From a virus (Duplodnaviria > Heunggongvirae > Uroviricota > Caudoviricetes): 38,452 nt of DNA. The DNA is taken from the IMG/VR virus record IMGVR_UViG_2728369592_000010, positions 1 through 38,452 of that record. One strand, 5' to 3'. The notes under the pieces were generated by a model. That model was not told the DNA's origin and made no database searches. It saw only the letters and a list, made by a program, of their open reading frames with translations. The stretch's first letter is position 1; the number at the start of each line of letters is the position of its first letter. Positions 5,491 through 26,096 of this stretch are shown here, piece after piece. The translations under genes and the position numbers were made by a program.

Positions 5491-5507
5491 ATTACCTTTC
5501 AGGTAAT
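5491..5507. promoter_or_regulatory. Operator-like palindrome ATTACCTTTCAGGTAAT (TTACC-N5-GGTAA family)
   Basis: Perfect inverted repeat; identical core to the site at 22435-22449. Confidence 0.6.
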
Positions 5508-17962: not shown

Positions 17963-18400
17963 TTAACCAGTTACTTTTGAGCGGATCGGATACGGCGTAT
18001 TGGCATCAACATCAAGACTGATACCAGCAGTGAATTCGCCAGCCGTTAGTGGGCCAGTTGCGACGGAGTAGTTAACACGCAGATATCGCTGAACACCGGC
18101 AGGCACCTTTGCAGAAACAACTCGTTTACCTGCTGTCAGGGCGGTCTTTGCCAGTGCGCCACTATCATAAATAGTGGTCCATGAGCTGTTATTCTCACTC
18201 GTCTGCAACTGGATGTTTACAGTTGCATCACCGCTTGCCGTGGCGGCTGTGCTAACCAGCACCCAAAACTCAAGCGGGTAACCCACGCCGATATCACGAC
18301 GTTTTCCGTCAATTGGACCGAGATCGATTACGTCAGTAGAAGCCGCGGTATCAGTTACCGCCTGTGCTTCGGAGAACATCAACAGTTTGTCGGTGATCAT
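17963..18400 (-). CDS. Putative capsid decoration / minor capsid protein
   Basis: 145-aa ORF immediately after the major capsid gene; assignment by position only. Confidence 0.55.
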   Translation of the reverse strand: MITDKLLMFSEAQAVTDTAASTDVIDLGPIDGKRRDIGVGYPLEFWVLVSTAATASGDATVNIQLQTSENNSSWTTIYDSGALAKTALTAGKRVVSAKVPAGVQRYLRVNYSVATGPLTAGEFTAGISLDVDANTPYPIRSKVTG

Positions 18401-18451
18401 CTTCTTTCTCCATTAGTGGGTCTGTTACGACCCACAGGTTAATAACAGGCG

Positions 18452-19444
18452 TTACACCACGCGGGCTTCTGTTTCCAGAAGCGCATCAGTTTCACGGATT
18501 GGTACACCACGGAATGACGTCCACCACTCGCCTTCAGTCTCTTTTACGCTAATCGCCAGAGATGTTTTCTCCAGAGACTGCAAATCAAGAGCCTGGCCTA
18601 CAGTGCGGTTCATGTAGAACACCGGGCGCCCCATGCCACGGTTTGGAATGCGATGCAGTGCTTTAACCATCAACTTCGCAATATTTGCGGCAGAGGAAGG
18701 TTCTGAAAGATTGCTGACATCGATGTTTGCAATGCGAACAACATAACGCCAGTCACGCAGAGCAAGTCCGTTATCCCATTTGTAATGGGTACGGTAGCCT
18801 TCGTACTTGCCGCCATTAGCATCTTCCAGTGTCACCTGGCCTTTATCTTCCATCTGAATGCCAGCCTTCTGCCCTTTCGGGAAGATGCCATGCACGGTGT
18901 TTTCGCCCCACACCACTAACCAGATTGAGGTGTTATCTGTACCCGTGCCACCAGCATCAATGATGTTCTGAGCATTACCTGCAGACAGGCTGGAATAGCG
19001 GGAGGACAGTCCCATAAACTGCTGAGGGTTAACGCTGGAATCACCATAAAACAGCGTCTGCGCCATCTGCTGATTCATCGCTTCAATAAATGCGCGGTCT
19101 TCAGACAGGCGGAATTCGGCGGTATTGCCGTTCAGATCAGCCAGTGACTTATCGACTTCAGCATAGGTTTCCAGCATGCCAACGGAATCGGTTACCTGCA
19201 CTGTGGTTGATTTGCTTGGCTGTACGCCATAGTTCAGCAAACGCCAGGTAGCTGAAGGTAAACCAGAACGAATGGTGGTTCGGTGTCCGGTAGGAAGGTT
19301 CCCTTCGACAAAAGGCATATCCTGAAGGATCGGGTTAGTTTGACCGAGAAGCTCGATAATCTTATCGACTTTCCCGTTTGGATCGACGCGCTTACCCCAG
19401 TCAGCCAGCGTTAGCGCAGTTAAGCCTTTAACAGCCATTGTCAT
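18452..19444 (-). CDS. Major capsid protein
   Basis: 330 aa, follows the scaffold gene and precedes the decoration candidate; size and position match a HK97-fold major capsid protein of epsilon15-type phages. Confidence 0.8.
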   Translation of the reverse strand: MTMAVKGLTALTLADWGKRVDPNGKVDKIIELLGQTNPILQDMPFVEGNLPTGHRTTIRSGLPSATWRLLNYGVQPSKSTTVQVTDSVGMLETYAEVDKSLADLNGNTAEFRLSEDRAFIEAMNQQMAQTLFYGDSSVNPQQFMGLSSRYSSLSAGNAQNIIDAGGTGTDNTSIWLVVWGENTVHGIFPKGQKAGIQMEDKGQVTLEDANGGKYEGYRTHYKWDNGLALRDWRYVVRIANIDVSNLSEPSSAANIAKLMVKALHRIPNRGMGRPVFYMNRTVGQALDLQSLEKTSLAISVKETEGEWWTSFRGVPIRETDALLETEARVV

Positions 19445-19452
19445 TTCCTCTC

Positions 19453-20154
19453 TTATTTGCCATAGAGCACTTCGGCCGCACTACGCTGGCCTTCATTACC
19501 ACCGGTGACCATGCCATCTTCAGACATCGCCTTTCCGATTTTCACGAACGTTTTGACCAGATCAGGGTGATTACCCAGCCCGGTGGTGTTCAGATATTCT
19601 TTGAGTTCAGGTGTCCCGAACTGGTCAAGCGCACGCTGTGCGGCGCTAAGGTTAGAAATCAACTTGTCGCCACCGATTTCTTTGTCAGCTTTTACATCCG
19701 CAGCCCACTGCTCGGTTGTTTTCTGCCAGGCTTCTGCCTGGCGCTGCTGAACACCTGCCAGAATCTTCGGATAAGCATCAACCAGCTTTTGCGCTTGCTC
19801 GTTGGTCAGGTTAAGTTCTCGCGCCACCGGCTCGAATTCCTTCAACGCTTCTGTATCCAGCTCTACGCCTTCGGCAGCCTGAAACTCGTACTTCTCAGGC
19901 GCACCCTCTGGTTTATCGCCGTCCTTTTTTTCATCCTGCTTATCGTTTTCAGGCTTTTTGTCATCAGCAGGTTTATCGCCATCAGCAACAGGTTGTGGCT
20001 TATCACCTTCCTGTTGTGATGGATCACCAACTGGAGCAGGGTTATCACCTGCAGGCGCTGACGGTTCTGACGCAGCCGGAGCTGCTCCACCATCGACTGG
20101 TTGCTCATTGCAAAGACGGCGATACAGCAAACGCTCAAATAAATTCATGATCAC
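19453..20154 (-). CDS. Scaffolding protein
   Basis: 233 aa, acidic, low-complexity Pro/Asp/Lys-rich segment then coiled coil, located between portal and capsid genes. Confidence 0.7.
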   Translation of the reverse strand: MIMNLFERLLYRRLCNEQPVDGGAAPAASEPSAPAGDNPAPVGDPSQQEGDKPQPVADGDKPADDKKPENDKQDEKKDGDKPEGAPEKYEFQAAEGVELDTEALKEFEPVARELNLTNEQAQKLVDAYPKILAGVQQRQAEAWQKTTEQWAADVKADKEIGGDKLISNLSAAQRALDQFGTPELKEYLNTTGLGNHPDLVKTFVKIGKAMSEDGMVTGGNEGQRSAAEVLYGK

Positions 20155-20447
20155 TCCTGTTCACTGGCCTCTTTGGCCATCTTCAAATACTGTTCAGGGC
20201 AATGCGCCATAACGCGCTGAAACAGTTCCAGCGCCAGATTGCGTTGCCCCTCATTAAATGCCATTGCCATAGCATCCATCGGAGAGATAGCGGAAAACAC
20301 CCGGCCTTTCTCCAGCACAGACCAGACAACGCGACGCCCATGTTCACTGCTCATGACAAAGCGAATGTCATCAATTTCACGCTGTGCCATGTCACGTTGC
20401 TTACGGGCGTTTTCTTCTTTCAGTTGATCGTCTTCGTAATCTGTCAT
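20151..20447 (-). CDS. Small head-assembly protein, unknown function
   Basis: 98-aa ORF overlapping portal stop and scaffold start. Confidence 0.6.
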   Translation of the reverse strand: MTDYEDDQLKEENARKQRDMAQREIDDIRFVMSSEHGRRVVWSVLEKGRVFSAISPMDAMAMAFNEGQRNLALELFQRVMAHCPEQYLKMAKEASEQE

Positions 20448-22123
20448 TGTGATTGCCCACCCTGACCACTAACTACATTCGCCATAGCTGACAAAACACT
20501 CGGATCCGAAGTTTTAGCTTCGCTTAGCGTTTTGGCACCCTGTGCCGCCGCCATCCCCATCGCCATCATTTGTTGCTGCTGTTGCTGCTGTGCCCGTTGC
20601 TGGCGAGCCTGCTCAACCTGTTCCTGCGGAACAATGACGGTTGGAGACACTCCGGACATATCAGCGAATGCATCGATCGCCTGATCAACGTTGAGTTTGT
20701 CGAGAGCTTCTGGTTTCGCTTGCGCAAGTTGACCAATGAAGTTAACCGTGGACGCCAGACTGGACAGGCCGATAGACTTCTGCGCCTGAGCCATGACGGA
20801 AATGTATTCGACCTTCAGGGGCATACCTTCCATCGCGTCAGGCGGTGGCGGCAGCATGTTTTTACGCACCATCATCGAGAAAGCGCGGTCAATGAGAGGG
20901 TTAAGACATTCGTCGTTCAGACGCTCCAGAACCGGCCCCAACATCAGAAGCTTTTCTTCTTTCATTTCGATCACTGCTTCAACAGGCATCGAGCGGGTAT
21001 TGATGTTCTGCAACATCATGAACAGATCGACAAAGTAGGCGCTGTTAATGATTTGGCGGGTGTCCTGAATGTCTGCTACCAGATCTGCTGTACTGGGGTT
21101 AACCAGATAAGCAGGCCTGAAACCATCCTGACCAGTAATCTGATCGATATACGTGATGTCGCCAGGAAGAAGAGAGGCGCGCTGATTCTTGAGGGAAGTC
21201 GGAGCAACCATCGGCGGATTGGTGGCTTTATCAATCAACTGCGACTTGCGCTGCTGGAGAAGCTGCAATGCCTTAACAGGTCCAAGCGCCAGCATACCCG
21301 GGCATGATGATCCATAAACATCTTCGCCGTTAACTTCCCAGCGCGGAGCCATAATTGGAAACTCATCGAATCCGGACTCACGCAACAACTTGTCGTTATC
21401 GCCGCCAACCTCGTAATAAACCGATTTGAATGGCTTGTTCTTGCTATCCAGCTTCGATGTATCGCGGTCAATGTTCGGGTAAACCGAATGCATAACTTCA
21501 ATCCACTTCTCGTAGGTGCCGCTTTCCCACATGCTTTTTACGGATTCGCTGACGTTATTTAGCCCGAACTCCTGAACAAGCTGACGAACAGTCATAGAGA
21601 ACTTGCGAAAACAGGTGTCCACACTGCCACGAGGTGAGTTAGCCAGGTAGTAACTGCCTATCGGGAATGGCATTGTGCGAATGATGTCCTCGTCATCCTC
21701 CAGCACCGCCATTGCACCAGTGCTGTATGTACCGAGGCTTCCGTATAACTGCGGCAGCGACTGGTAGAGATTCGACTTATTGAACATATCGTTCATACGG
21801 TTCTGCACCGCCTCAAGCCACAACTTAACAGGTCCATAATCCATCATTTCAGGATCTGGCGTAGCCAGGCGAAACCACGGACGCGCTGGGCTTGTGATGC
21901 CTGACATCATGCCGCTGGCGAGAGTGCGCGCCGCCATAGTCCCGGTCGAATCAATAATGCGTGTATTGCGTCGATCGTTACGGTTGACCTCAGAAGTCAG
22001 AAAGCGGGAACCACGCGGGTTGATGTAATCACTCAACTCGCGCCAGTGCGGCTCGAACGACTGACGCTCGCTTTCAAGTTGTGCGAACTGTTTGTTCAAT
22101 CGCTCTTTAGTTGTTTCCGCCAT
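20444..22123 (-). CDS. Portal protein
   Basis: 559-aa ORF in portal position between terminase and scaffold/capsid genes. Confidence 0.85.
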   Translation of the reverse strand: MAETTKERLNKQFAQLESERQSFEPHWRELSDYINPRGSRFLTSEVNRNDRRNTRIIDSTGTMAARTLASGMMSGITSPARPWFRLATPDPEMMDYGPVKLWLEAVQNRMNDMFNKSNLYQSLPQLYGSLGTYSTGAMAVLEDDEDIIRTMPFPIGSYYLANSPRGSVDTCFRKFSMTVRQLVQEFGLNNVSESVKSMWESGTYEKWIEVMHSVYPNIDRDTSKLDSKNKPFKSVYYEVGGDNDKLLRESGFDEFPIMAPRWEVNGEDVYGSSCPGMLALGPVKALQLLQQRKSQLIDKATNPPMVAPTSLKNQRASLLPGDITYIDQITGQDGFRPAYLVNPSTADLVADIQDTRQIINSAYFVDLFMMLQNINTRSMPVEAVIEMKEEKLLMLGPVLERLNDECLNPLIDRAFSMMVRKNMLPPPPDAMEGMPLKVEYISVMAQAQKSIGLSSLASTVNFIGQLAQAKPEALDKLNVDQAIDAFADMSGVSPTVIVPQEQVEQARQQRAQQQQQQQMMAMGMAAAQGAKTLSEAKTSDPSVLSAMANVVSGQGGQSQ

Positions 22124-22137
22124 TTCAATGACTCCGG

Positions 22138-22344
22138 TTACTGACCAAGCAGCGTTTTACCGCTGGTATTAGCGGTTGATGTGTCGCCCTGAGAACCGGT
22201 AAGCAGCGTAGAACTACGACCAGCAGCAGCGCGACGGCGACGTGTTTCTTCGTCGCGGGCATCAACAACGGCGGCATCCTGCTCCTGTGGTGCTGCCTGA
22301 ACTTCTGGTGTTGCAGGCACTGATGGTGAGCTACCCATGCACAT
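22138..22344 (-). CDS. Possible small protein immediately upstream of portal
   Basis: 68-aa ORF with SD GGAG; low-complexity sequence, so weak. Confidence 0.3.
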   Translation of the reverse strand: MCMGSSPSVPATPEVQAAPQEQDAAVVDARDEETRRRRAAAGRSSTLLTGSQGDTSTANTSGKTLLGQ

Positions 22345-22412
22345 ATCAATGACTCCGTACGCAATTAAATTATTACCAATTTAACCACATATGATTTATT
22401 TATCGTAGACAG

Positions 22413-22450
22413 TTGACATTTAACGCACGAATTATTACCTTTCAGGTAAC
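22413..22450 (+). promoter_or_regulatory. Candidate promoter (-35 TTGACA at 22413-22418) overlapped by operator-like palindrome ATTACCTTTCAGGTAAC (22434-22450)
   Basis: Consensus -35 hexamer on the plus strand about 350 nt upstream of the tRNA; operator covers the expected -10/+1 region. Confidence 0.45.
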
Positions 22451-22771
22451 CAAAGAGTTCATTCCGGTTACTAACCTGACTGGCTTGTCGTTAAATTGAA
22501 CAGGTGGAGTGAGCTTTTATTTTGAGCAGTACGGCGTATGGCACATGCGCCGATAGCGGTCTGGATACGTTTAAGGGGCACCCTCCCTTGCTCGGGCAAA
22601 CGAACCAGGTAGCCGGAATGTGCAAGTCGAGCGGTTTTATTCCGCGCACGGGGATTCACCATCCCGGCGATTCGGTGTGACGCCTCGGAAGAGACGAGGG
22701 TACAACGATGAGAGCATTTATGGAGCCGCGACAAAGTGTGGCGCCTTAACAGGCTAAGTGCTCTCAGCGTT

Positions 22772-22848
22772 GTGGCATTAGCTCAGTTGGACAGAGCAAC
22801 CGCCTTCTAAGCGGTTGGTCGCAGGTTCGAATCCTGCATGCCACGCCA
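22772..22848 (+). tRNA. tRNA-Arg (anticodon UCU, reads AGA), phage-encoded, with encoded CCA
   Basis: Manually folded cloverleaf: acceptor GTGGCAT/ATGCCAC, D-stem GCTC/GAGC, anticodon stem ACCGC/GCGGT with loop CTTCTAA (TCT at 22806-22808), T-arm GCAGG-TTCGAAT-CCTGC, discriminator G, CCA; similar to but distinct from host argU as I recall it. Confidence 0.85.
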
Positions 22849-22893
22849 GAATCACACCTGAGGACCGTGATGCCAGAAGTTCCAGGGGCTTGG

Positions 22894-22935
22894 CGGTGAT
22901 GGTTTCCCTTGAAGGACTACCACCGCCCTTTTTAC
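22894..22935 (+). terminator. Hairpin GGCGGTG...CACCGCC followed by CTTTTT (first terminator after tRNA)
   Basis: 7-bp GC-rich stem with a long structured loop and a T-run. Confidence 0.45.
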
Positions 22936-23011
22936 AGCAGGACGCCATTGCGATGACTTCATGCTGTAAACCAGTACAGCCACGGAAGGCGGAACTCATT
23001 GCTTCCAGTTC

Positions 23012-23036
23012 GCCCGGTTCGTCCGGGCATTTTTTT
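23012..23036 (+). terminator. Rho-independent terminator GCCCGG-ttcgt-CCGGGC-TTTTTTT
   Basis: Textbook GC stem plus T7 run, ending 6 nt before the downstream ORF. Confidence 0.75.
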
Positions 23037-23041
23037 GCCTG

Positions 23042-23920
23042 ATGACCACAAATTACCTTAAAGGTATAATCATGAAAAACTTTAAGGTAATTAGTATGTT
23101 CGAATCGTTCAAAGAGCTGTTTTTATCTACTGCCAATACTGCCGTGCATCGAGCTAAAAACCCTGTGCTTGGTGCTTTTGTTATGTCCTGGTGCGCCTTC
23201 AACTGGAAATCACTTCTTTATCTATTTTTTAGCAAATCAAATATAATAGATAAAATTTCATACATCTCAGATAACAGCACATGGAAAACTGTTATGTTTT
23301 ATCCATGCTTATCTGTAATTACTATCTGCTGCCTATTACCATGGGTAAACAATATCATTAACGTATGGCAAGCAAAGCCTCTTGATAATAATGACTCAAT
23401 CGAAAATCACCGGAAGGCAAGAAAAATACAACGTGAAACACGGCTACAGAGATTGCTGGCTAAAAAAGACATTACTTACGAAAAAGTAAAAACAGGCGCT
23501 GAAAAAAACATTCAAGACATGAAAGAGGAAATAATTCTTTCAAAAGACAGAATGGGACAACTCACATCTGAATTGAAAGAGAGGGAGACAGAACTGCGCG
23601 CAGAACAAGCTCGTATTTTAGAATTATCTAAGGTTATTGATGAAACAACATCTAAACTAGAAAATCTAGAAAAAGCTCACAAAAATTTAAAAAACGAATA
23701 TGAGTCCTATAAGAAAAACATTCCTTTGGCAACAAATAATACAATTGCTAATGGGCTTGTAGGTCTAAAATCATTACAAGACCTTAATGAGTCCGTAAAG
23801 AAACTTGGCGTTACTGGAATTAACAATCCAGAAATCAATACATTATTGAATAATCCTCTAGTAAATATAAATGGTGGTTTAAATTCCACCTATCAAAGAA
23901 AATTAAAAACACAAAAGTAA
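23042..23920 (+). CDS. AT-rich moron: membrane-anchored coiled-coil protein of unknown function (candidate exclusion/abortive-infection effector); probable start at ATG 23096
   Basis: Clearly AT-rich relative to flanks (by eye about 35% vs about 50% GC); opposite strand to terminase and portal; own -10 TATAAT at 23065-23070 overlapped by near-operator TTACCTTAAAGGTAT (23053-23067); two N-terminal TM helices then about 120-aa coiled coil; uses AGA/AGG Arg codons. Confidence 0.75.
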   Translation: MTTNYLKGIIMKNFKVISMFESFKELFLSTANTAVHRAKNPVLGAFVMSWCAFNWKSLLYLFFSKSNIIDKISYISDNSTWKTVMFYPCLSVITICCLLPWVNNIINVWQAKPLDNNDSIENHRKARKIQRETRLQRLLAKKDITYEKVKTGAEKNIQDMKEEIILSKDRMGQLTSELKERETELRAEQARILELSKVIDETTSKLENLEKAHKNLKNEYESYKKNIPLATNNTIANGLVGLKSLQDLNESVKKLGVTGINNPEINTLLNNPLVNINGGLNSTYQRKLKTQK

Positions 23921-23923
23921 AAA

Positions 23924-25393
23924 TCATTCAAATGGGTCATAGTCTGTTATAGCCCTGCCCTGCTGCTGCCGTGGGTCATTAGTTTTCTTGGCTACCGGGA
24001 AAGCAAACGTCAGCAGTAGCGCATCGCCTTTACCCGGCGAACGCCCAAGCCGCTCTTTGATATCTTCCTTCGGTTCGATAACGATTTTACCGTCCACACG
24101 AACTTTGTACTCTGCCGCCGACAGGTCATCCGCTGTTTCCTGGTCATCCAGCATCCCGCCGAGCCTCAGCCATGTCTTGCATGAGTTGAACATCTCCCCG
24201 CGCTTATTGAGCATCTGCGGGTCAGTAGACGCGCCGCCGAACGGAACAAGTTGCCATGTACGACCCCAGCCGTCACCGATTGACTTCAGACCGGTACCGT
24301 AACCGAAGTCGATGAACACCGCGTCAGCCTGATACTGGTCTTCAAAGTCAGCGATACGCTTTGCCATAATCAGATCGTCAGTGGTCTTGTTGCCGGTCCA
24401 CAGCACCTTACTGTGCAGCCCCTGCCGCAGGTATATCACCGCGTCATCAACGCCTGAGTATGCCGGGTCAACGCCGATTATCACCGGAGCATGTGCAACC
24501 TGCGCAGCGGTGACCACCCGTTTCATTGCCTCGTCAGTAAGTCCGGTAGGGATAAACTGCAATTCAGATGCATCCGGGAATATGCCGCGCACACGGATTT
24601 TAACGAAGTCGCTGTCTTCCCCGTAGTCATCAACCCATTTCTGCAACTGCTGTTTGTTAGTGCCTTCCACCGTCCGGCTGTCAATCTGCGCAGTTTTCCA
24701 GCGGTGTTTATATTTGCGGAAACATTCGCGGAAACGCCCGGTGTTACGTGTAGGGTTTCCGAACGCCACCCAGATAATCTCAGTGTCTTCGTCCGTTAGC
24801 GCCCCCTCAGCAACTTCCCACACCAGATCCGCAATGTTCGACGCTTCATCGAATACCACGATGATGCGTTTGCGCTCGTTGTGTAGTCCGGCGAATGCCT
24901 CAGTGTTGTGCTCAGACCAGGGGATTGCGTCAGCTCGCCACCGCTTGTCGTGCCCAGGATCATTGCTGTACATCGCGGTAGCGGTACAGGTAAACCAGTC
25001 TTTCGTGATAGCAAGGTTCGACCACTTGATAATTTCCGGCCAGGTCTTCGTTCGTAGCTGGTTGTCGGTGTTGGCGGTCACCACGACCTTACAATCCTCG
25101 CAAGTGGACATGCCCCAGTTGATCAGCATTGAGATGAATGCGGATTTACCAATACCGTGACCAGAAGCGCGTGCCAGCATAAGCGGCTGATAGCGCGTCT
25201 CTGGATTCTGCAGGTGATCACGTATCTCTCGGAACGCATCAGCCTGCCACTGACGTGGGCCGGTAGCATGTGCCAGTTCAGTCCCCTCTTCCCCCCACGG
25301 GAACGCATAGAGGGCATAGCCAAGCGGATCGTGAGTGAACCCTGCAATATCCTCGATCAACTGCTCTTCAGGAGATAACGCTGTATCTGTCAC
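23924..25393 (-). CDS. Terminase large subunit
   Basis: 489 aa; N-terminal ATPase features and C-terminal nuclease region; ATGA overlap with small-subunit stop. Confidence 0.9.
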   Translation of the reverse strand: MTDTALSPEEQLIEDIAGFTHDPLGYALYAFPWGEEGTELAHATGPRQWQADAFREIRDHLQNPETRYQPLMLARASGHGIGKSAFISMLINWGMSTCEDCKVVVTANTDNQLRTKTWPEIIKWSNLAITKDWFTCTATAMYSNDPGHDKRWRADAIPWSEHNTEAFAGLHNERKRIIVVFDEASNIADLVWEVAEGALTDEDTEIIWVAFGNPTRNTGRFRECFRKYKHRWKTAQIDSRTVEGTNKQQLQKWVDDYGEDSDFVKIRVRGIFPDASELQFIPTGLTDEAMKRVVTAAQVAHAPVIIGVDPAYSGVDDAVIYLRQGLHSKVLWTGNKTTDDLIMAKRIADFEDQYQADAVFIDFGYGTGLKSIGDGWGRTWQLVPFGGASTDPQMLNKRGEMFNSCKTWLRLGGMLDDQETADDLSAAEYKVRVDGKIVIEPKEDIKERLGRSPGKGDALLLTFAFPVAKKTNDPRQQQGRAITDYDPFE

Positions 25394-25986
25394 TGATTAC
25401 CATCCTGACGTTCTTTGAGTCGCTTCCTGGCTGCTGCTATGCGATCAGCAATTGTCACATTCACATTAACATCCAGACGTTCTTTGAACGCGTTGACATC
25501 AACATGCTTACCAATCAGCTCAAGGTTCTTCACCTTGTCAGGCCATTTAATTTTTTTGAGGATTGTCTCTATCGAATCCTCGTTCATGTTCATGATGGTC
25601 GATGACAGATCAAAGCCACTAAGCGTAGTGCGCCAGATTTTCGGCCACTCACGGATTGGTTTAAGGCTCCCATCGTCGTTGAGGATGTCGATCACGTCCA
25701 TCTGGTCGATCTCCACCAGGCGCATGAGAACGTAATCAGCACTGACGCGCATTCGTTTGTTGCGCTCCTCCATCAACTCGGCAATCCGTTTTTGAATGCG
25801 TTCATCGCGCATCATGACACTGGCTTTAACTGCCGCTGTATTTGGGGAGAATCCTGCGTTAATCGCTGCCTGAGTCTGGTTTTCAGGCGTTTTGATGTAT
25901 GACTGGCAATAAGCCTCCTGCATTGCTGTTAGTGGCTTAAATTGCGTTGATTTGCGTTTATAGGTTTTAGGTTCAGCAGGCATCAT
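25390..25986 (-). CDS. Terminase small subunit (start set at MMPAEP; ORF-track start at 26064 adds a low-complexity extension without SD)
   Basis: Motif AAINAGFSPNTAAVKASVMMRDERIQKRIAE is typical of small terminase DNA-binding domains; GGTGG before the internal ATGs. Confidence 0.75.
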   Translation of the reverse strand: MMPAEPKTYKRKSTQFKPLTAMQEAYCQSYIKTPENQTQAAINAGFSPNTAAVKASVMMRDERIQKRIAELMEERNKRMRVSADYVLMRLVEIDQMDVIDILNDDGSLKPIREWPKIWRTTLSGFDLSSTIMNMNEDSIETILKKIKWPDKVKNLELIGKHVDVNAFKERLDVNVNVTIADRIAAARKRLKERQDGNQ

Positions 25987-25993
25987 AACCACC

Positions 25994-26025
25994 GTGGTAA
26001 TAGTTACCGTTGTGGTAATAGTACC
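25994..26025. repeat. Two direct copies of an everted GGTAA/TTACC element (GTGGTAATAGTTACC and GTGGTAATAGTACC) upstream of the terminase small subunit
   Basis: Read directly; half-sites are the same as the operator family but in everted arrangement with 3-bp spacer. Confidence 0.4.
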
Positions 26026-26096
26026 ATGCAAAATAAAGCCGCCATAGTTGGCGGCAGTATTCAAAACCCATCAAATTCATCATGCATAATCTACTC

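Follow-up and report, generated by a model that had tools for sequence, protein, structure and literature searches.

Background

Several described systems stand close to the element treated in this work. Phage-borne tRNAs for rare codons, such as ileZ-argN-argO of the Stx phages and the trnI tRNA-Ile2(CAU) of P1, have a canonical cloverleaf and lie in genomes that are rich in the cognate rare codon. Co-transcripts of a noncoding RNA (ncRNA) with a tRNA or tRNA-like part, whose ends are defined by RNase P, are known from MALAT1/mascRNA and from the T4 tRNA cluster with its stable RNAs species 1 and 2. GOLLD and ROOL are ncRNAs of phages and prophages with pseudoknots and of unknown function, which often lie beside tRNAs, and tRNAs are sometimes found in the linker of GOLLD (PMC12286853); the put RNA of HK022 is about 70 nt long, has two stem-loops and occurs as a putL/putR pair (PMC9378689). 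Herein we analyse a tRNA-Arg(UCU) gene in the virus record IMGVR_UViG_2728369592_000010 (Caudoviricetes), whose whole stretch of 38,452 nucleotides is called the window below, together with the structured RNA to which this tRNA is joined and the AT-rich gene that follows it, called the cargo gene.

Like the phage tRNAs for rare codons, the tRNA-Arg has a canonical cloverleaf and a genome rich in its cognate rare codon, and like the host argU it has the UCU anticodon with the same anticodon loop and T arm. Unlike in argU, its acceptor and anticodon stems are rewritten; and unlike the known rare-codon tRNAs of phages it lies neither in a tRNA cluster nor upstream of a toxin or lysis cassette, while it is joined to the closing stem of a structured RNA, where it is interchangeable with non-decoding tRNA-like domains. 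The tRNA-Arg is the 3' module of a composite ncRNA of about 0.5-0.6 kb. This composite RNA is similar to GOLLD and ROOL in being a phage-encoded, pseudoknotted and tRNA-associated ncRNA, whereas it is smaller (a 250-nt core, ~0.5-0.6 kb as a whole), gives no match to their Rfam models and is confined to Enterobacterales phages as far as sampled; it is not a member of GOLLD or ROOL. In its likely biogenesis it resembles MALAT1/mascRNA and the T4 stable RNAs, with the difference that here the leader is paired up to position -1.

The tRNA-Arg itself is ordinary and already annotated in this phage group. What is noteworthy is that it is embedded in an unannotated RNA family which is supported by covariation and extends to P1 and Stx-type phages. 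Clear covariation thus marks an RNA that has neither an Rfam family nor an annotation in genomes as well studied as those of P1, Stx2-converting and SfV-like phages, and its recognition removes several spurious antisense 'hypothetical proteins'. Moreover, the natural series at one position, from a true tRNA to degenerate tRNA-like domains, can serve to test roles of the tRNA 'top half' beyond decoding. Our favoured reading, with a probability of roughly 0.6, is that the gene provides a functional AGA-decoding tRNA which is made early as part of the composite ncRNA, is cut free by RNase P where it joins the closing stem, and aids the AGA-rich genes of the phage.

A genuine tRNA-Arg(UCU) gene

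22772-22848, + strand: tRNA-Arg(UCU) gene with encoded CCA end (ARAGORN; Rfam tRNA model; argU comparison)

The stretch at 22772-22848 is a genuine tRNA-Arg(UCU) gene. ARAGORN reports it as the sole tRNA of the window (tRNA-Arg, anticodon TCT, + strand), the Rfam model RF00005 matches it with 73.3 bits (gathering score 29, E = 2.4e-14), and the identical sequence is a tRNA-Arg in the PGAP annotation of E. coli PCN033 and other genomes. An earlier note, made from the letters of the sequence alone, had described a clean cloverleaf at exactly these coordinates, differing from argU in the acceptor and anticodon stems, and both descriptions are borne out. Compared with K-12 argU, 65 of the 77 positions are identical. 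Three pairs of the acceptor stem are altered, all with compensation (GUGGCAU/AUGCCAC versus GCGCCCU/AGGGCGC), as are two pairs of the anticodon stem, again both compensated, while the remaining differences fall in the variable loop and at one base of the D loop. No change is seen in the D stem, in the T arm or in the anticodon loop CUUCUAA. Arginyl-tRNA synthetase (ArgRS) recognizes A20, C35 and U36 as identity elements, and all three are present here, A20 within the D loop AGUUGGACA; the 3' end is GCCA, of which the CCA is encoded. In the alleles of related phages the cloverleaf is preserved by compensatory changes, for example from C5-G68 to U5-A68. Judged by these features, the gene is very probably functional.

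For some Klebsiella-type alleles of this tRNA (for example locus L006, 1913-1989), the 3' end reads ...AUGCUGC-A-CCA, which brings a G3.U70 wobble together with A73, that is, the identity set of alanyl-tRNA synthetase. Such alleles might be charged with alanine at AGA codons.

A conserved structured RNA domain 5' of the tRNA

22526-22775, + strand: structured RNA domain 5' of the tRNA (covariation; covariance model)
22532-22552, + strand: hairpin H1 of this domain

The 250 nt in front of the tRNA are a conserved structured RNA. In the intergenic alignment of the relatives, the region upstream of the tRNA consists of conserved blocks with inserts of variable length between them. The consensus built from 33 diverse sequences contains 8 helices and 49 pairs, a pseudoknot included, and 98% of its cells are paired. 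Of these pairs 17 vary on both sides, as compared with a mean of 8.9 in shuffled alignments, none of 500 shuffles reaching the observed number, and with 2-5 in slid controls; the G-U pairs are compatible with the + strand only. Following H1, the domain comprises a long arm with a variable tip, then a pseudoknotted hairpin whose CACC loop pairs with a downstream GGUG, the hairpin CCUCG-GAAGAGA-CGAGG, and a closing stem of about 17 bp with a variable apical insert, whose last pairs can take in G1-U2-G3 of the tRNA as the final three bases. The covariance model has a single match in the window (22526-22775, 217.7 bits) and matches all 24 of the 24 species genomes carrying the motif, which belong to Enterobacterales except for two metagenome bins assigned to Bacillota.

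The loci compared here were gathered via two exact sequence motifs, and the counts from this collection are not unbiased frequencies. A search with a 19-mer from the region upstream of the tRNA gave at least 175 viral loci. Among 176 regions scanned, 62 have the tRNA-Arg about 164 nt downstream, 16 have a tRNA-Ile2(CAU) about 170 nt upstream, and 98 have no tRNA; separately, a megablast of the 1.6-kb segment found matches in 1085 of 5426 complete E. coli genomes. In annotated phages, as searched by BLAST, the element occurs in three kinds of phages, always unannotated or under a dubious antisense open reading frame (ORF). The first are the epsilon15-like phages. The second are SfV/Stx-type lambdoid phages, namely mEp460, cdtI, and Stx2c and Stx2a phages, in which cI and its terminator are followed by a PL-like promoter, then by the element, and then by two terminator hairpins ahead of the first early-left gene. 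The third are P1, P7 and related phage-plasmids, where the element is truncated and stands between trnI and ban, within the ban operon that C1 controls. No protein partner common to all these contexts was found.

In Rfam 15, at gathering as well as permissive thresholds (E <= 10), there is no family for the 5' domain, and the window and 7 related loci gave tRNAs only. The searchable literature on the phiV10 tRNA, tRNA-like phage RNAs, put RNAs and HK639, the SPC32H repressor and GOLLD/ROOL contains no description of the element that we could find. Two unrelated Rfam families, C4 and isrK, turned up elsewhere: the C4 antisense RNA and isrK, an immunity RNA pair of P1/P7 type, lie near the lambdoid antirepressor gene of mEp460 (locus L223, 206-394, minus strand), and the lambdoid phages with C4/isrK near the antirepressor are carriers of the new RNA.

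As genes, the minus-strand ORFs at 22778-22999 and 22471-22734 were rejected, as just 14 of the 33 copies have them open and, of 188 indel runs, 170 have a length that is no multiple of 3. Their counterparts PhiV10p04 and mEp460 gp37 were likewise rejected as proteins, the covariation fitting a + strand RNA. Most likely, then, the antisense ORFs annotated as hypothetical proteins in several phage records are artefacts.

Besides the full domain, its 3' sub-module (the GAAGAG hairpin with the closing stem) is also seen alone in Phytobacter ursingii (locus L228, 2210-2887, minus strand), about 340 nt beyond a core copy and immediately in front of an odd tRNA 'Ile(AAU)', and a weak extra copy stands upstream of tciA in P1 (locus L222, 1464-1561). 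The sub-module may be a reusable pre-tRNA leader.

A slot shared by the tRNA and tRNA-like domains

The closing stem of the 5' domain ends in ...CGUU|GUGG, the GUGG being the start of the tRNA. Relatives without the tRNA-Arg also begin with GUGG after an invariant ...CGUU, and in them follow a D-arm-like hairpin, a highly variable middle part of 40-90 nt and a T-arm-like hairpin, some with the canonical loops UUCGAAU or UUCGAUU. These tRNA-like domains end in ...CCAC-A-CCA or -ACC and are followed by the 3' hairpin AUCACG...CGUGAU, as after the tRNA of the window. A strict search for this arrangement finds it in 23 of 58 distinct variants versus 1.6% of shuffled sequences. No recognisable anticodon arm was found in the tRNA-like domains, and those of 7 related loci gave no Rfam match at E <= 1. 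A Phytobacter genome has its odd tRNA 'Ile(AAU)' in the slot, and the GUGG start is invariant through the tRNA-Arg, this 'Ile(AAU)' and all types of tRNA-like domain. In the collected loci the tRNA-Arg occupies the slot only in the context between terminase and portal genes (64 cases), and the tRNA-like domains occupy it about 30 times in that context and about 37 times in the lambdoid one. The tRNA-Arg and the tRNA-like domains are equivalent in the slot, and the slot accounts for an acceptor stem unlike that of argU, because its first four bases are fixed there.

Such equivalence also gives ground to a different view, in which the slot matters more than decoding: the module would serve the composite RNA, either as a handle for RNase P and the CCA enzyme that sets the 3' end of the 5' RNA, in the manner of mascRNA for MALAT1, or as a structural or protein-binding tRNA 'top half', and decoding would be a secondary gain. 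Non-decoding tRNA-like domains do occur in the same slot within the same phage group and in lambdoid phages, the acceptor and T-arm features are retained while the middle part is free to vary, and the GUGG invariant in all slot modules would explain the non-argU acceptor stem. On the other hand, the tRNA-Arg alleles of E. coli, Salmonella and Klebsiella phages all retain a perfect anticodon arm and the ArgRS identity bases, which indicates selection on decoding too; and P1 carries the 5' domain without a slot module, so that the 5' RNA has no strict need of one. We regard this view as unlikely, though it is the strongest competitor of a decoding tRNA.

The diversity of the slot modules bears on another possibility as well, namely that a variant tRNA or the tRNA-like domains guard against tRNA-targeting nucleases, as resistant replacement or as decoy; the decoy was suggested by the earlier note. 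Phage tRNAs that rescue anticodon-nuclease cleavage are known, for example in phage T5 and mycobacteriophages, and the known route of evasion is by changes in the anticodon loop. The stem sequences unlike argU, the great diversity of the tRNA-like domains, such as could come out of an arms race, and the apparent repressor control of the unit described below, with early expression to be expected from it, would all suit such a role. However, the 7-nt anticodon loop CUUCUAA is the same as in argU rather than altered, and the tRNA-like domains have no recognisable anticodon arm. The decoy has found no positive support, and a role against nucleases seems to us quite improbable.

Occurrence in the phage lineage

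The window is an epsilon15/phiV10-like (Uetakevirus) prophage between yfgI and guaA. The tRNA-Arg lies on the strand opposite to the long leftward structural operons, between the terminase and the portal operons, with the following neighbours.

25390-26064 and 23924-25393, leftward: terminase genes
22138-22344, leftward: gp3
20444-22123, leftward: portal gene

The attachment site of the epsilon15-like group has its att core at the 3' end of guaA (PMC9782041), and the tRNA-Arg is therefore not the attachment site of the prophage; the only integrase is at the prophage end beside guaA. The tRNA-Arg is carried by phiV10, EC.W1-9, SPN9TCW and a Klebsiella phage, whereas epsilon15 is without it. At 95% identity or more it is found in about 505 of 5518 E. 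coli records, it is already annotated in several related phage records, and the literature notes it in phage ZX5 (PMC9782041). Identity between the window and PCN033 is confined to the surroundings of the tRNA and the cargo gene; elsewhere the window is a mosaic. The tRNA-Arg is a feature of the lineage of epsilon15/phiV10-like phages and not of the neighbouring AT-rich gene.

In epsilon15 (loci L002 and L250, 2652-2764, compared with SPN9TCW, locus L007, 3970-4440) the tRNA and most of the 5' domain are gone through a deletion between two copies of (G)UUCCCUUGAUGCU. One UUCCCUUGAUGCU copy is at the tip of a helix in the 5' domain, the second within the loop of the first 3' terminator hairpin, and the stretch annotated as 'RNaseIII' in epsilon15 is within the deletion remnant.

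The transcription unit and its probable control

22413-22441, + strand: sigma-70-like promoter read from the sequence, -35 TTGACA at 22413-22418, 17-nt spacer, -10 TACCTT at 22436-22441
22435-22449: repressor operator TTACCTTTCAGGTAA overlapping the -10 of the unit (palindrome search)
22851-22871, + strand: hairpin AUCACA...CGUGAU directly 3' of the slot, conserved in relatives
22892-22933, + strand: first terminator-like hairpin, GGCGGUG...CACCGCC followed by CUUUUU, read from the sequence
22931-23036, + strand: 3' block with a hairpin at 22931-22970 and a strong intrinsic terminator, stem 23012-23028 and T-run to 23036 (inverted repeat; terminator scan)

The unit has the order of promoter and operator, a leader of about 80 nt, the 250-nt structured domain, the tRNA and lastly a 3' trailer containing two terminator hairpins; the conserved unit ends at 23036. 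In 7 phages, from E. coli, Salmonella and Klebsiella, the blocks TTGACA and ATTACCTTT do not vary. We infer that TTGACA/TACCTT is the promoter of the RNA/tRNA unit, with a start site probably near 22448; it is absent from the promoter scan because its -10 matches the consensus at only 3 of 6 positions. The first terminator hairpin is kept in epsilon15-like phages and has its lambdoid counterpart in GGCGGUACCAG...CUGGUACCGCUCUUUUU.

The window has 11 copies of the palindrome TTACC-N5-GGTAA versus 0.73 expected, at 5492, 22435, 23053, 25986, 26004, 29597, 29659, 31942, 31990, 32702 and 32764. These sites lie between cro and the repressor gene (31942, 31990), past the repressor gene, where the small terminase gene begins, and ahead of the tailspike gene, as well as over the -10 of the unit and, with one mismatch, over that of the cargo gene. 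In the epsilon15 record the equivalent sites are annotated as repressor-binding ('repressor; lysogeny'). From the positions of these operators and the contexts of the element, the RNA unit appears to be under direct control of the prophage repressor in all three phage types, and because of this control its expression is expected to be early. In a lysogen the repressor would hold the RNA/tRNA unit off; upon induction or infection the unit would be transcribed early, and RNase P would cut at G1, just after the closing stem, parting the 5' RNA from the tRNA.

The lambdoid arrangement recalls the put RNA of HK022, and the 5' domain could in principle be a cis-acting processive antiterminator of this kind, with the tRNA carried along in its leader. 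In lambdoid phages that lack N, the element does stand about 25 nt after a PL-like promoter and ahead of two terminator hairpins that precede the first early-left gene, just as put RNAs come directly after an early promoter and before terminators, and every context of the element appears to be under prophage-repressor control. The put RNAs are however short and paired (~70 nt, two stem-loops, putL/putR; PMC9378689), while the element measures at least 250 nt with 8 helices and a pseudoknot and occurs once per genome. The epsilon15-like context is also unsuited: in the window nothing downstream needs read-through, the cargo gene being separately promoted and the terminase gene convergent. Moreover the P1 element is 2.3 kb away from Pban, and no terminator follows it. 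We therefore find antitermination in cis improbable.

Most likely the 5' domain is instead a trans-acting early RNA, since in this phage only the separately promoted cargo gene lies past its terminators. More broadly and more tentatively, with a confidence slightly short of even, we propose that these RNAs form an undescribed family of large, repressor-controlled immediate-early RNAs in epsilon15-like, SfV/Stx-type and P1-like phages, made of a pseudoknotted 5' domain and an exchangeable slot for a true tRNA or for a tRNA-like domain with a CCA end, and acting in trans in the lytic switch. Their targets under this proposal could be, for example, the host machinery for tRNA processing, charging or translation, or tRNA-directed defences.

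As for the trailer, its stretch CACCGCCCUUUUUACAGCAGGACGCCAUUGCGAUGA is invariant in 7 phages from three host genera. A RyhB-like small RNA at 22937-23036 (+ strand) was considered and rejected, with a score of 20.5 bits (E = 0.39) against a threshold of 55; the 13-mer CAUUGCUUCCAGU common to the trailer and RyhB is not kept in the Klebsiella phage. A small ORF from the invariant ATG at 22953 was also rejected, as its length varies from 13 codons in phiV10 to 29 in the window, and the long ORF annotated at this site in SPN9TCW merely reads through the terminator. The trailer between the terminator hairpins could be an Hfq-type small RNA or a processing product.

Use of AGA and AGG codons

Codons were counted in the window's own ORFs, with 44 prophage genes (11,279 codons) and a host sample of 42 genes.

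Prophage, 44 genes: AGA 84, AGG 41, 7.45 AGA per 1000 codons
Host, 42 genes: AGA 12, AGG 4, 0.82 AGA per 1000 codons
Cargo gene: AGA 4, AGG 1, 14.2 AGA per 1000 codons
Terminase, portal, protease, capsid and cement genes, 2142 codons: AGA 0, AGG 4, 0 AGA per 1000 codons

The prophage is rich in both codons, and its use of AGA is about nine times that of the sampled host genes. The AGA codons are clustered in the tail/injection, early and lysis genes. The earlier note pointed to the AGA codons of the cargo gene; the use of AGA is prophage-wide, with only 4 of the 84 AGA codons in the cargo gene and with ten other prophage genes above it in AGA density; for the cargo gene itself, at least 4 AGA where 2 are expected has P ~0.15 by a Poisson estimate. 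Among the four genomes compared, the AGA frequencies per 1000 codons are as follows.

Window, tRNA present: all genes 7.45, orthologous structural block 5.02
phiV10, tRNA present: all genes 6.90, orthologous structural block 4.98
SPN9TCW, tRNA present: all genes 5.45, orthologous structural block 2.62
epsilon15, tRNA absent: all genes 4.38, orthologous structural block 1.30

This trend, with its single genome lacking the tRNA, agrees weakly with a coupling between codon and tRNA. For a tRNA that compensates codon usage, the cognate codon should be commoner in phage than in host genes, as it is here; an enrichment of AGA in highly expressed late genes was not found. In fact the stretch from 17963 to 26064 with the cement, capsid, protease, portal, gp3 and terminase genes has no AGA in its 2142 codons.

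The mature tRNA, once released, would add AGA-decoding capacity mainly for the tail, early and lysis genes. Several points weigh against this favoured reading of an early, RNase P-released decoding tRNA. Since the most highly expressed genes have no AGA at all, any translational benefit would be confined to the three gene groups just named. The codon comparison covers four genomes from two hosts, and epsilon15 without the tRNA still has 54 AGA codons; since this phage remains viable although it has lost the tRNA and the greater part of the 5' domain, the unit is dispensable. As regards expression, the -10 of the unit promoter (TACCTT) is weak, the operator at 22435-22449 could instead serve a divergent leftward promoter for gp3 and the portal gene, and a leader paired up to position -1 is unusual for an RNase P substrate.

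The adjacent AT-rich gene

23072/23096-23920, + strand: variable AT-rich cargo gene, PGAP start 23072, ATG 23096 the likelier start
23042-23070, + strand: cargo promoter ATGACC, 17-nt spacer, TATAAT (promoter scan, 10 of 12 matches)
23053-23067: operator-like palindrome TTACCTTAAAGGTAT over the cargo -10 (operator search, 1 mismatch)

The tRNA-Arg and the cargo gene are independent of each other. According to the earlier note the two may have been acquired together, with the 3' end of the tRNA as the site where the cargo arrived. The cargo gene is indeed AT-rich (33% GC), its 11 arginine codons include the several AGA and at least one AGG that the note had seen (4 AGA and 1 AGG), and its homologues with 46-55% identity occupy the same position in Klebsiella phages, all of which would fit an island. 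However, each occurs without the other: in the collected loci the cargo family lies beside the tRNA 17 times and beside tRNA-less variants 5 times, and the tRNA-Arg stands without this family at least 47 times, accompanied by other cargo. The neighbour of the unit varies, being an Sf6 gp66-like protein (PhiV10p03) in phiV10, gp50 in epsilon15, a 201-aa protein in EC.W1-9, a DUF2829 protein in a Klebsiella phage and yet another gene in SPN9TCW. The homology to the phiV10/epsilon15-like relatives ends right after the T-run at 23036, which is 188 nt past the tRNA and beyond the two terminator hairpins, and not at 22848. The search for att-like repeats flanking the cargo (23037-23923) found none; the sole tRNA-like repeat is a 14-mer with 12 matches, which is at chance level, and the integrase is only at the guaA end. 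Furthermore the cargo has its own promoter, its AGA density is surpassed by ten prophage genes, and an allele has recombined inside the gene. The island is thus already contradicted by these data, and we give it hardly any weight.

The recombined allele shows the cargo gene to be a mosaic: another E. coli allele (locus L008, 3212-4030) diverges after the N-terminal half, and the region common to it and the window extends over 22360-23556, that is, through roughly the first 160 codons. The encoded protein has N-terminal hydrophobic segments and a coiled coil and matches phrog_4780, of unknown function, with the alignment starting at residue 9. Pfam and PADLOC gave no family for it beyond coiled-coil noise, and in a large protein search every homologue was named 'hypothetical'.

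The ATG at 23096 is preceded by AAGG and by the promoter whose -10 ends at 23070, and the palindrome over this -10 is perfect in phage EC.W1-9. Across the window, the promoters with operators include those of the tRNA unit, the cargo gene, the terminase genes and the tailspike gene, and such dispersed operators resemble a P1-like scheme in which one repressor serves many separate promoters.

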